IMG/VR virus record: IMGVR_UViG_2711768009_000004
Direction: 5' to 3' (one strand)
DNA from: a virus
Taxonomy: Duplodnaviria > Heunggongvirae > Uroviricota > Caudoviricetes
DNA length: 5,248 bases
In this document: positions 1,107 through 5,248 of the stretch, piece after piece
Layout of the letters: each line of letters starts with the position of its first letter
Numbering within the stretch: position 1 is the first letter of the stretch
Translations under genes and position numbers: made by a program
Notes under the pieces: model-generated
The model's database searches: none
What the model saw: only the letters and a program-made list of their open reading frames with translations
What the model was told of the DNA's origin: nothing

Positions 1107-1457
1107 ATGCCATCACTAATCCCACGTGCCTGCCGTAAGCGTGGATGTGCAGGTACAACCACAGACAGTTCGGGTTACTGCGATAAACATCGCGGTGAAG
1201 GCTGGGTGCAGCACCAGCGCGGACTGAGCCGCCACCAGCGTGGCTATGGCTCAAAATGGACGGTGATTCGTGCCCGTATTCTGAAGCGCGATAAAGGTCT
1301 GTGTCAGTTGTGTCTGCGTGTCGGTGTGGTGAGCGAGGCGAAAACCGTCGACCACATCATCCCGAAAGCGCATGGCGGAACAGACGCAGACAGCAACCTG
1401 CAGAGTCTGTGCTGGCCCTGCCATAAAGCGAAAACAGCGCGCGAACGAATCCGGTGA
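1107..1457 (+). CDS. HNH endonuclease, packaging-associated (HK97 gp74-like), 116 aa
   Basis: Seen: SD GAGG (1098-1101) 5 nt before ATG 1107. HNH core motifs DHIIPKAHGG ... NLQSLCWPCHKAKT with CxxC pairs (CQLC, CWPC); extra N-terminal Cys/His cluster (C-x4-C ... C-x2-H). Established: HNH genes sit immediately upstream of terS in HK97-like cos phages. Confidence 0.9.
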   Translation: MPSLIPRACRKRGCAGTTTDSSGYCDKHRGEGWVQHQRGLSRHQRGYGSKWTVIRARILKRDKGLCQLCLRVGVVSEAKTVDHIIPKAHGGTDADSNLQSLCWPCHKAKTARERIR

Positions 1458-1475
1458 TAATTATTCTCACTTGTA

Positions 1476-1539
1476 GGGAGGGGCGGGGCAAATCCCTGTG
1501 ACCTGACGTCTTCCGGACTGCCCGCCCCATCGTTTTTTT
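1476..1539 (+). other. GC-rich imperfect inverted repeat plus T7 tract in HNH-terS intergenic region; candidate cos region or non-canonical terminator
   Basis: Seen: arms ggggcggggca (1480-1490) and tgcccgcccc (1519-1528) are reverse complements except one extra G. Spacer of 28 nt contains palindrome gacgtc. T7 run at 1533-1539 follows after 4 nt. Inference: in HK97-like phages cos lies between HNH and terS. Confidence 0.35.
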
Positions 1540-1578
1540 ATACCCGCGAAAAATGAAATTTAACCAGGAGTGCCGCAT

Positions 1579-2073
1579 ATGGCTGGAACGGCGGGGCGTT
1601 CCGGGCGTCGCCCCAAGCCAACGGCGCGCAAGGCGCTGGCCGGAAACCCCGGCAAGCGAGCCCTGAACAAAGATGAACCTGTTTTTACGCCCATCAAAGG
1701 TGTTGAGCCACCAGAGTGGTTCGCTGAAGAAGATCTCCCTCTCGCCACGATCATGTGGCAACTGACAACCAAAGAACTCTGCGGTCAGGGCCTGCTGTGC
1801 GTGACTGACCTGGCGGTACTTGAGCGGTGGTGCGTGGCCTATGAGTTCTGGCGACGTGCCGTGAAAAATATTGCCATACAGGGCAACACCATCACCGGTG
1901 CAATGGGCGGCAGGGTCAAAAATCCGGAGCTGACCGCCAAAAAAGAACAGGAGTCCGAGATGAGCAGCACGGGGGCAATGCTCGGACTCGACCCCAGCAG
2001 CCGCCAGCGTCTGATTGGCCTGGCGGGGCAGAAGAAAGCCACTAACCCGTTTCTGAAAATTATCGAATCATGA
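1579..2073 (+). CDS. Terminase small subunit, P27 family (HK97 gp1-like), 164 aa from ATG 1579
   Basis: Seen: SD AGGAG (1566-1570) 8 nt before ATG 1579. N-terminus [30 protein letters not shown] is typical of P27-family small terminases (established). The track's start at 1570 is a GTG overlapping the SD and is less likely. Stop TGA 2071-2073 overlaps terL start (ATGA). Confidence 0.9.
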
Positions 2074-3803
2074 GCCGGAAATCTTACCCCAACGTAAATG
2101 CTGCAAATCAGTATGCCCGGGATGTCGTGCGCGGAAAGATTGTTGCCTGCCAGTTTGTGATTCAGGCCTGCCAGCGCCATCTTGATGACCTGATGGCGGA
2201 AAAAAGTAAGTCGTTTCGTTACCGCTTCGACAAGGACCTGGCTGAACGGGCCGCGAAATTTATTCAGCTGTTGCCGCACACCAAGGGGGAGTGGGCATTC
2301 AAACGGATGCCCATCACGCTGGAGCCGTGGCAGCTATTTGTGATCTGCTGTGCGTTTGGCTGGGTCAATAAAGGCACCCGGTTGCGCCGCTTCCGGGAGG
2401 TGTACACCGAAATCCCCCGTAAGAACGGCAAATCAGCAATCTCTGCCGGTGTTGCCCTGTATTGTTTTGCCTGTGATAACGAGTTTGGCGCGGAAGTGTA
2501 TTCCGGTGCCACGACAGAGAAACAGGCGTGGGAAGTCTTTCGCCCGGCGCGACTGATGTGTAAACGCACACCCATGCTGACGGAAGCGTTCGGGATTGAG
2601 GTTAACGCCTCAAACATGAACCGTCCGGAGGATGGCGCGCGGTTTGAACCGCTGATCGGCAACCCAGGTGATGGTTCATCACCCCACTGTGCCGTGGTTG
2701 ATGAATATCACGAGCATGCCACCGATGCGCTTTATACCACAATGCTTACCGGGATGGGGGCGCGACGTCAGCCACTGATGTGGGCCATCACCACCGCCGG
2801 GTACAACATTGAGGGGCCGTGCTACGACAAGCGGCGGGAAGTCATCGAGATGCTCAACGGCTCGGTGCCTAACGATGAACTGTTCGGGATCATCTATACC
2901 GTTGATGAAGGTGACGACTGGACCGGCCCGCAGGTGCTGGAAAAAGCCAATCCAAATATTGGCGTGTCGGTTTATCGCGAATTTTTGTTAAGTCAGCAGC
3001 AGCGTGCGAAAAATAACGCCCGTCTGGCAAACGTCTTTAAAACAAAACACCTCAATATCTGGGTGTCGGCGCGTTCGGCGTATTTCAACTTGGTGAGCTG
3101 GCAGAGCTGCGAGGATAAATCACTGACCCTTGAGCAGTTCGAGGGGCAGCCGTGCATTCTGGCCTTTGACCTGGCGCGTAAGCTGGATATGAACAGCATG
3201 GCGCGACTTTATACCCGCGAGATTGACGGTAAAACGCATTACTACAGTGTGGCCCCGCGTTTCTGGGTACCGTATGACACGGTGTACAGCGTCGAGAAAA
3301 ATGAAGATCGACGGACAGCCGAACGCTTTCAGAAATGGGTGGAAATGGGCGTTCTGACCGTTACCGATGGTGCGGAGGTGGATTATCGCTACATCCTCGA
3401 GGAGGCCAAAGCGGCGAACAAAATCAGCCCGGTCAGTGAGTCACCCATCGACCCCTTCGGGGCGACCGGGTTGTCACATGACCTTGCTGATGAAGACCTG
3501 AATCCCGTCACTATCGTCCAGAACTTCACCAATATGTCCGATCCGATGAAAGAGCTGGAAGCAGCGATTGAATCGGGACGTTTTCATCATGACGGCAATC
3601 CCATCATGACCTGGTGTATCGGCAACGTGGTCGGCAAAAACATGCCGGGTAACGATGATGTGGTGAAACCCGTCAAAGAGCAGGCGGAAAACAAAATCGA
3701 TGGTGCAGTTGCGCTGATTATGGCGGTTGGCAGAGCCATGCTGTACGAGAAAGAAGACACGCTGTCTGACCACATTGAGTCCTACGGGATCCGCTCGCTT
3801 TAA
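2070..3803 (+). CDS. Terminase large subunit (HK97 gp2-like), 577 aa
   Basis: Seen: Walker A-like EIPRKNGKS (nt 2409-2435); Walker B-like CAVVDEYHE (nt 2688-2714); C-terminal nuclease-type region with acidic motif ILAFDLARK. Start ATG 2070 overlaps terS stop. Size and motif order fit the HK97-type large terminase family (established). Confidence 0.95.
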
Positions 3804-3814
3804 CTGAGGTAATT

Positions 3815-3997
3815 ATGATCATGCTGATTCTCGCGCCTCTGGTGGGCGTGCTGGGTGCGCTTTTGCTGGCGTATGGTGCCTGGCTGATTTATCCCCCGGC
3901 GGGTTTTGTTGTTGCCGGGGCGCTGTGCCTGTTCTGGTCGTGGCTGGTGGCGCGATATCTCGACCGTACACGGCAGTCTGTCGGCGGAGGTAAATAG
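3815..3997 (+). CDS. Small hydrophobic protein, predicted two transmembrane segments, unknown function (60 aa)
   Basis: Seen: SD GAGG (3806-3809) 5 nt before ATG 3815 (second ATG at 3821). Product [60 protein letters not shown] has two hydrophobic stretches split by YPPAG and a basic C-tail. Stop TAG 3995-3997. No family recognised; could still be a non-coding leader. Confidence 0.5.
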
Positions 3998-5153
3998 TGT
4001 TCTTTTCGGGATTATTTCAACGAAAAAGCGATGTGCCGGTGACCACGCCAGCAGAACTGCTGATGCTATCGGGCTGTCATACGACACCTATACCGGAAAG
4101 CGGATCAGTAGCCAGCGGGCCATGCGCCTGACGGCGGTCTATTCTTGCGTCAGGGTGCTGGCAGAGTCTGTTGGTATGCTGCCCTGCAGTCTCTACAAAA
4201 TCAGCGGTACCCTGAAAACACGGGCGGTGGATGAACGACTGCATAAGTTGGTTTCGGCAAAACCTAATGGCTACATGACACCGCAGGAATTCTGGGAGCT
4301 GGTTATTGTCTGCCTGTGTCTACGGGGGAATTTTTACGCCTACAAGGTAAAGGCACTGGGAGAAGTGGTGGAGCTTCTTCCGATAGATCCGGGCTGTGTG
4401 GAACCGAAGCTGAACAGCCAGTGGCAGCCGGTTTATCAGGTGACGTTTCCGGATGGTTCCGTGGATGTGTTGACCCAGAATGAAATCTGGCATGTGCGCA
4501 CCCTGACGCTGGATGGACTTGTCGGGCTGAATCCCATTGCGTATGCGCGTGAGGCCATTTCACTGGCAGCGGCAACCGAGGAGCACGGTGCCAGGTTGTT
4601 TAGTAATGGTGCGGTGACATCCGGTGTGTTGCGTACGGAACAAAAGCTCACGCCGGATGCTTACGAGCGTCTGAAGAAAGATTTTGAGGAGTGTCACACG
4701 GGGCTTGGCAATGCTCACCGCCCGATGATTCTGGAAATGGGGCTGGACTGGAAGTCGATGGCGCTGAACGCCGAGGACAGTCAGTTCCTGGAAACCCGCA
4801 AGTTTCAGCTGGAAGAAATCTGTCGTCTGTTCCGGGTGCCGTTGCACATGGTGCAGAACACCGATCGCGCCACCTTCAACAATATCGAAGAGCTGGGGCT
4901 GGGATTTATCAACTATTCACTGGTGCCGTATCTGACCCGCATCGAACAGCGGATCAACACCGGACTGGTACGAAAAAGTAAGCAGGGCGTTTATTACGCC
5001 AAATTTAACGCCGGGGCGTTACTGCGCGGGGATATGAAGTCCCGTTTTGAAGCCTACGCCACCGGGATCAACTGGGGAATTTACTCTTCCAATGACTGCC
5101 GCGACCTGGAAGATATGAATCCGCGTCCCGGTGGTGTAATGCCGATCAGTTAA
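3997..5153 (+). CDS. Portal protein, HK97 family; apparent frameshift near 5' end (possible pseudogene or sequence error)
   Basis: Seen: long ORF to TAA 5151-5153 with conserved portal N-terminal core AMRLTAVYSCVRVLAESVGMLPCSLYK and C-terminal RDLEDMNPRPGG. The only credible initiation signal is GTG 3997 with GGAGG (3986-3990) 6 nt upstream, but it is in a different frame (positions 3n+1) that stops at TGA 4129-4131; the portal body is in frame 3n. First in-frame ATG of the body is 4122 (no SD). The track start 3906 is a TTG inside the upstream ORF. Confidence 0.85.
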
Positions 5154-5185
5154 GGATCAGTTGACCGATCCAGTGGCTGTGTAAG

Positions 5186-5220
5186 AATCCGGAAACGCTC
5201 ACTTGTTTCCGGATTTTTTT
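5186..5220 (+). terminator. Rho-independent (intrinsic) terminator
   Basis: Seen: perfect 11-bp inverted repeat aatccggaaac (5186-5196) / gtttccggatt (5205-5215) with 8-nt loop gctcactt, running into a T7 tract (5214-5220). Lies 33 nt after the portal stop. Confidence 0.75.
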
Positions 5221-5248
5221 ATGCACATTGGACAGGCTCTTGATCTGG

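Follow-up and report, generated by a model that had tools for sequence, protein, structure and literature searches.

Phage HK97 has 10-nt 3' overhangs at its DNA ends, and cleavage of its cohesive-end site (cos) is stimulated by the HNH protein gp74 (PMC9410871, PMC11331095). The minimal site of its small terminase subunit, TerS, spans +15 to +29 (CTAACCCGATTTTTT); Arg128 reads the C:G pair at +21, and an A-tract is required (PMC11331095). For phage SfI, run-off sequencing of both ends of the virion DNA revealed that 10 nt, 5'-TGCCCGCCCC-3', are missing compared to the prophage, and the authors assigned this sequence to cos (PMC3636060). Here, we analyzed a DNA stretch of 5,248 nt (IMG/VR record IMGVR_UViG_2711768009_000004; the whole stretch is referred to as the window), which is the late region of an enterobacterial lambdoid prophage. 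We focused on the 121-nt gap (1458-1578) between the HNH endonuclease gene and terS, the gene for the small terminase, which an initial annotation had put forward as a candidate cos site. We consider it highly probable that a cos site of the SfV/SfI/phiP27 group lies in this gap and belongs to an HK97-type packaging system assisted by an HNH protein.

When positions 1100-2100 were compared with phage genomes by megablast, several linear records were found to start inside the gap. Positions 1519-1528 on the plus strand read TGCCCGCCCC and are identical to the SfI cohesive end mapped by run-off sequencing. The SfI record itself ends with ...GGACTGCCCGCCCC and restarts at the equivalent of window position 1529. 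In the phiP27 record, the depositors annotated a 'cos-site', CGCCCGCCCC, at the homologous position, and 9 of its 10 bases match 1519-1528. The HK97 record ends with ...GGGGGGGGGATCAAATCTTCAAAACCTTTGCCCCAAATGAC|CGCCGCCAAA and begins with GTTTGAATTTAACGCTAACCCGATTTTTTT; its terminal 10 nt, CGCCGCCAAA, are preceded by GAC and align with 1519-1528 without a gap. Indeed, no gaps were needed to align HK97, SfI, phiP27, and the window from the G-run upstream of the cohesive end to the nick. The end information of the three phages, obtained by run-off mapping (SfI), from annotation (phiP27), and from the record ends (HK97), falls into the same alignment columns. The proposed candidate was thus borne out by comparison with HK97-family phages: the ends of SfI, phiP27, and HK97 all align at 1519-1528, and the mapped end of SfI coincides with this segment, the core of the nicking site (cosN).

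By homology, the top strand would be expected to be nicked after 1528 and the bottom strand at 1518/1519. The SfI overhangs are presumably 3' (recessed 5' ends), because the run-off reads from both ends leave a gap and not an overlap. Together with the 10-nt 3' overhang of HK97, this gap suggests the same polarity for the window locus. The cohesive end also forms the right arm of an inverted repeat, in which the initial annotation had located the candidate cos site, around a 28-nt core with the palindrome GACGTC. This placement was correct in that the predicted nicks (1518/1519 and 1528/1529) flank the right arm, but they do not lie in the core.

Conservation was analyzed in related loci gathered via terS (one genome per species) and via HNH (viral contigs). 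In total, 45 distinct cos regions from Escherichia, Shigella, Edwardsiella, Serratia, Photorhabdus, Xenorhabdus, Morganella, Gilliamella, and a Cupriavidus were aligned over 103 nt with no gap; a forty-sixth (L042), with a 1-nt indel in the preliminary alignment, was left out. One of the loci, L009 (JAEWTL010000102.1, 'MAG: Bacillota bacterium'), is a 5.6-kb contig whose enterobacterial terS is 98% identical and whose cos region is identical; the contig is probably misbinned. Conservation was expressed as the mean consensus fraction on 23 loci, with terS third codon positions as the neutral baseline (consensus 0.60, 5.5% invariant columns). Block A (1476-1498), a G-run followed by CAAATCCCTG, contains the left arm of the repeat (1480-1490) and has a consensus of 0.85 with 35% invariant columns. 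Block B (1515-1528) consists of GGAC (1515-1518), which lies directly upstream of the inferred bottom-strand nick, and the cohesive end (consensus 0.76, 36% invariant columns). Block C (1533-1563), composed of T7-AT-ACCCGCGAAAAATGAAATTT, reaches a consensus of 0.95 with 61% invariant columns; its average consensus is slightly higher than that of terS second codon positions (0.92, 68% invariant columns).

The A-rich stretch is therefore the most constrained part of the gap. Block C of the window is identical at 31 of 31 positions to that of Xenorhabdus szentirmaii, whose terS third codon positions are only 39% identical. Spacers, in contrast, score 0.55-0.57. The one between blocks A and B (1499-1514), which includes GACGTC, has a consensus of 0.57 and no invariant column (0%); its length is fixed, and its sequence is free. 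This spacer evolves neutrally and is the least constrained part. GACGTC is present only in close SfV-like relatives, and it was rejected as the cut site because it sits in the neutral spacer. The sequences flanking the cohesive end are conserved above the neutral rate at fixed spacing. Taken as a whole, the gap region is far from random: in relatives from many genera, its conservation is well above the synonymous-site baseline.

In the 45-sequence alignment, A49 and C50 are invariant, and G47 is nearly invariant. GAC is also found in HK97, while TAC takes its place in a second family of loci (L049-L118). The distance from TCAAATC in block A to GAC, counted from C to A, is 28 nt in the relatives of the window, in the second family, and in HK97. 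The end of the HNH gene varies: its stop codon (TAG) lies inside block A in L012, L016, and L021, and in HK97 the gene ends approximately 270 nt upstream. Block A is therefore positioned relative to the nick and not to the HNH end.

The blocks do not all follow the same gene. Members of the second family have an HNH protein 90-98% identical to that of the window, whereas terL, the gene for the large terminase, is only 38% identical, and terS is undetectable by similarity. Blocks A and B (GTAC|CGCCGCC...) are present in these loci with unchanged spacing, whereas the block downstream is completely different. In phiP27, terS is 48% identical, and block C occurs as the variant ACCCGCGAAATTAAAAATTTC. 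Block A and GAC are retained even in HK97, in which HNH is 34% and terL 26% identical and the terS sequence is unrelated. Blocks A and B are kept and block C is replaced when terS is swapped; A and B thus go with the cutting enzymes, and C goes with terS. The putative cutting module (block A 28 nt upstream of GAC, plus the overhang) spans phages with 26-38% terL identity and unrelated terS. It is conceivable, though rather doubtful, that HK97-type cos sites in general consist of exchangeable modules, a cutting module travelling with HNH and a separate TerS-specific module downstream. If block A indeed docks the HNH protein, this would settle which enzyme nicks which strand, a question that is still open for HK97 (PMC11331095).

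Block C may be the TerS-binding site, similar to cosB. The distance between block C and the nick is fixed to the nucleotide, whereas anything from 32 to 102 nt separates the block from the terS ATG. Counted from the inferred left end, ACCCGCGAAAAAT of block C occupies +14 to +26. This segment combines ACCCG with an A-tract, and the HK97 TerS site contains ACCCG and an A/T-tract within +15 to +29; the published numbering of the HK97 site agrees with the HK97 record. The N-terminus of the terS product is basic and predicted to be disordered, like the N-terminal arm of HK97 TerS. No sequence match was found for terS in the PDB. A sequence similar to the core of block C (CCGCGAAA...AAATTTA) is present within terL (2253-2270, GCCGCGAAATTTATTCAG), in the window as well as in all relatives. 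As this segment codes for protein (ERAAKFIQ), the likeness is probably a coincidence.

Taken together, the following mechanism can be proposed. Terminase and the HNH protein would introduce a top-strand nick after 1528 and a bottom-strand nick at 1518/1519, generating 10-nt 3' cohesive ends (TGCCCGCCCC). TerL and/or HNH would read blocks A and B; TerL with HNH would cut at block B, and block A might serve as the upstream recognition or positioning element. TerS would dock on block C, position the nuclease and, as in HK97, stall the motor at the next cos. From 1529, packaging would move rightwards into terS, and it would terminate once the next cos is reached.

The surrounding genes fit a packaging locus of this type. 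Their order was read from open reading frames and Pfam assignments. A holin gene (11-226) is followed by lysozyme and Rz genes (from 226), which are partly masked: 291 N at 597-887 stand in for the 3' part of the former and the beginning of the latter. Where related E. coli genomes match (query from window position 900), the features of the Rz region are annotated as rzpD and iss. The HNH endonuclease gene (1107-1457, plus strand; Pfam PF01844, E 1.6e-16) is the counterpart of HK97 gp74, with 34% identity at the protein level (BLASTP, E 2e-10). The protein also matches PDB entry 5h0m, an HNH endonuclease (E 1e-12), and is 99% identical to phiP27 HNH. Its stop codon (1455-1457) and the terS ATG (1579) delimit the gap. 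The small terminase gene terS (1579-2073, plus strand) belongs to the P27 family (PF05119), and terL (2070-3803, plus strand) encodes a large terminase with ATPase and nuclease domains (PF03354, PF20441) that is 26% identical to HK97 gp2 (E 8e-31). HNH, terS, and terL are intact open reading frames. A gene for a small membrane protein (3815-3997) precedes an HK97-type portal gene (from 3997), which matches the SfII and phiP27 portals. The cos-bearing gap thus has the HNH gene on one side and terS on the other, with terL and an HK97-type portal gene further downstream. Matches to the HNH-cos-terS region with at least 80% query coverage were found in 1095 of 5426 complete E. coli genomes; a prophage packaging module of this kind is very common.

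The portal gene (3997-5137) carries a 1-nt deletion near 4059 relative to the SfII portal, which causes a frameshift. Its homology to phage portals ends at approximately 5137, roughly at residue 380 of 413, and the last 111 nt of the window (5138-5248) are 100% identical to the end of IS4. These insG elements occur in up to 32 copies per E. coli genome. A strong hairpin with a T-run at approximately 5179-5210 lies inside the IS4 end. IS4 has inserted into the portal gene, which is a pseudogene. Because this gene is frameshifted and truncated by IS4, the prophage is defective and unable to make heads alone. In Xenorhabdus hominickii (L036 and L037), terS has an in-frame stop (W47*) next to intact cos blocks, a further case of a prophage that decays but retains cos.

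All features of the gap listed in the initial annotation were found where it had placed them, and the gap is indeed 121 nt long. The left arm of the repeat is GGGGCGGGGCA (1480-1490), and the right arm is TGCCCGCCCC (1519-1528). The perfect part comprises 8 bp, GGGGCGGG (1480-1487) with CCCGCCCC (1521-1528), with 33 nt between them. GACGTC is located at 1505-1510. A 4-nt spacer, ATCG (1529-1532), precedes the T7 tract (1533-1539), which is followed by the A-rich stretch and an AGGAG Shine-Dalgarno sequence (1566-1570). Dinucleotide-preserving shuffling of the gap (3000 replicates) produced a perfect inverted repeat of 8 bp with a loop of at most 45 nt in 5.5% of the cases. The z-score of the RNA fold was -1.21, and 24 of 200 shuffles folded at least as well. 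No covariation between the arms was detected in the alignment of 45 relatives; 78.1% of the cells pair, which is below the mean of 78.5% in column shuffles, and the covariation is likewise lower than in the shuffles. The repeat is only marginally above chance, and its symmetry is incidental. We therefore rejected it as a conserved symmetric or structured element (no covariation, shuffle P of about 0.055, fold z-score -1.21). This also speaks against a symmetric element recognised by terminase, which the initial annotation had considered an equally good reading, as symmetry is not what the relatives conserve.

Several other candidates in the gap were discarded. A second hairpin (alignment columns 39-47 with 56-64), seen in Xenorhabdus, is not family-wide and is absent from the window. 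A tRNA-like reading of GGGGCAAATCCC, which resembles a T-loop, was rejected since ARAGORN finds nothing. The Rfam search gave no match at E <= 1, no sigma-70 promoter was found in the gap by scanning, and repeated R-like sites were likewise not found there. Codons 3-7 of terS (AACGGCGGGGCG, 1587-1598) are 83% complementary to CGCCCCATCGTT (1523-1534), which spans the end of the cohesive end, and the same segment is a 75% direct repeat of 1470-1485; both similarities may be due to chance.

We considered other explanations for the conservation of the gap. The hairpin and T7 could form a rho-independent terminator or attenuator that separates the lysis/HNH transcript from the head genes. RNA folding does pair GGGGCGGG..CA with UG..CCCGCCCC ahead of U7, and in 6 of the 45 relatives, mainly Xenorhabdus, a canonical stem of 5-10 bp with a loop of 5-8 nt abuts the T-run. 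However, the T-run is present in 43 of 45 relatives and the adjacent hairpin in only these six, and the complementarity of the arms is not kept beyond the shuffled level. In the window, the loop has 33 nt and 4 nt separate stem and T-run, which confirms that a terminator here would be atypical, as already stated in the initial annotation; it was not picked up by the terminator scan, and its fold z-score is unremarkable. Moreover, conservation peaks at ACCCGCGAAAAATGAAATTT, past the T-run, where no sequence would be required for a terminator. Late transcription in lambdoid phages is antiterminated by Q-modified polymerase, which must cross this site. A terminator is thus a very unlikely reason for the conservation, and the initial annotation, which had ranked it equal to an element recognised by terminase, was too generous to it. 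In four Xenorhabdus loci (L031-L034, columns 39-64), the GGACCGCC nick region sits inside a canonical terminator-like hairpin (stem of 7-10 bp, loop of 6-8 nt) that directly adjoins the T-run; no hairpin of this type is present in the window. In those lineages, one stretch of DNA may act as cos site and as terminator, and termination is at most a secondary role in some lineages. Alternatively, block C might act at the RNA level, as a translational operator or leader in the 5' untranslated region of terS. In favor of this are its position in the window, 14-46 nt ahead of the terS start, its AU-rich composition beside the Shine-Dalgarno sequence, and its extreme conservation. Extra sequence in the Xenorhabdus, Photorhabdus, and Morganella relatives, however, separates block C from the ATG by 63-102 nt, compared to 35 nt in the window. 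As block C is fixed relative to the nick and not to the start codon, matches neither Rfam nor a tRNA, and resembles the HK97 TerS DNA site in position and composition, we regard a role in the RNA as extremely improbable.

A different objection concerns the window copy itself, which might be cos by descent and an inert relic, functionless since the prophage cannot build heads. The frameshift near 4059, the truncation by IS4 at approximately 5137, and the lack of visible genes past the portal within the window speak for this. On the other hand, functional SfI and SfV carry identical blocks B and C, the variants in block A of the window recur in other loci (e.g., L059), and the HNH, terS, and terL reading frames are intact. 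The site could still be cut in trans by a phage of the same terminase specificity, whether co-resident or superinfecting, and one Shigella flexneri genome harbors two such copies (L006 and L007). We lean somewhat against the relic, although it is a serious possibility; the cos sequence of the window is undamaged, and any use of it would be in trans at most. As a side reading, intact cos copies in dead prophages might be entry points for helper-phage packaging of chromosomal DNA.

Some observations weigh against the assignment of cos and its blocks as a whole. The ends at the window locus are placed by homology alone, and in the defective prophage cos may never be cut unless a related helper phage acts. 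The SfV (U82619.2) and SfIV (KC814930.1) records start at the equivalent of window position 1512, 7 nt upstream of the overhang mapped in SfI; this offset reflects either a linearisation convention or a difference in the original SfV mapping. Furthermore, terS shows no sequence similarity to HK97 gp1, and Foldseek gave no significant hit. Finally, the proposed assignment of blocks to proteins is based on co-variation and analogy.

A cos site of the HK97 type nevertheless remains our preferred reading of the gap, and the element is closest to that of SfI, SfV, SfII, and SfIV. From the cohesive end through block C (1519-1571), the window differs from these phages at one base, position 1529, which is A in the window and G in SfI. 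The gene order HNH-cos-terS-terL-portal is the same, and the terS DNA is about 98% identical. Differences to SfI are a few substitutions in block A, an HNH gene of the phiP27 type and not of the SfI type, and the defective, IS4-interrupted state of the prophage. phiP27, a Stx2e phage, shares the 99% identical HNH, block A, the spacing, and the position of its cos-site (CGCCCGCCCC, 9 of 10 bases), but its terS is only 48% identical and its block C is the variant ACCCGCGAAATTAAAAATTTC, consistent with block C tracking terS.

With HK97, the window shares block A (G-run and TCAAATC) at the identical 28-nt offset from GAC, a 10-nt terminal segment after GAC that starts with CGCC, homologous HNH and TerL proteins, and an ACCCG motif with an A/T-tract about 15-30 bp downstream of the cut; the HK97 overhang is 10 nt long and 3'. 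However, the downstream motifs of HK97 follow another order and cannot be aligned base for base, and its HNH gene ends approximately 270 nt before block A, compared to 19 nt in the window. The cos of lambda (cosQ-cosN-cosB) follows the same three-part logic, with an upstream element, a nicking site, and a region further downstream that binds the small terminase, and is likewise located at the junction of lysis and head genes. It has 12-nt 5' overhangs (the discussion of one paper gives 10 nt) and relies on Nu1 R-sites and an IHF site, without HNH, whereas the window terS belongs to PF05119 and not to the Nu1 family. A lambda-type cos was rejected for the window, given the PF05119 terS, the lack of repeated sites, and the run-off gap in relatives, which implies a 3' overhang.

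In a full-text literature search, the sequences of the cohesive end and of block C matched nothing but unrelated primers. Our analysis fixes the cos site and the likely nick positions for the annotation of a very common prophage packaging module, and its layout offers concrete targets for terminase and HNH biochemistry, namely block C, which tracks terS, and blocks A and B, which are shared with HK97. The element itself is ordinary and already known in SfI, SfV, phiP27, and HK97. Compared to these systems, a known mechanism is refined and no new kind of element is added; the one modestly new point is the explicit three-block layout with parts that appear exchangeable.
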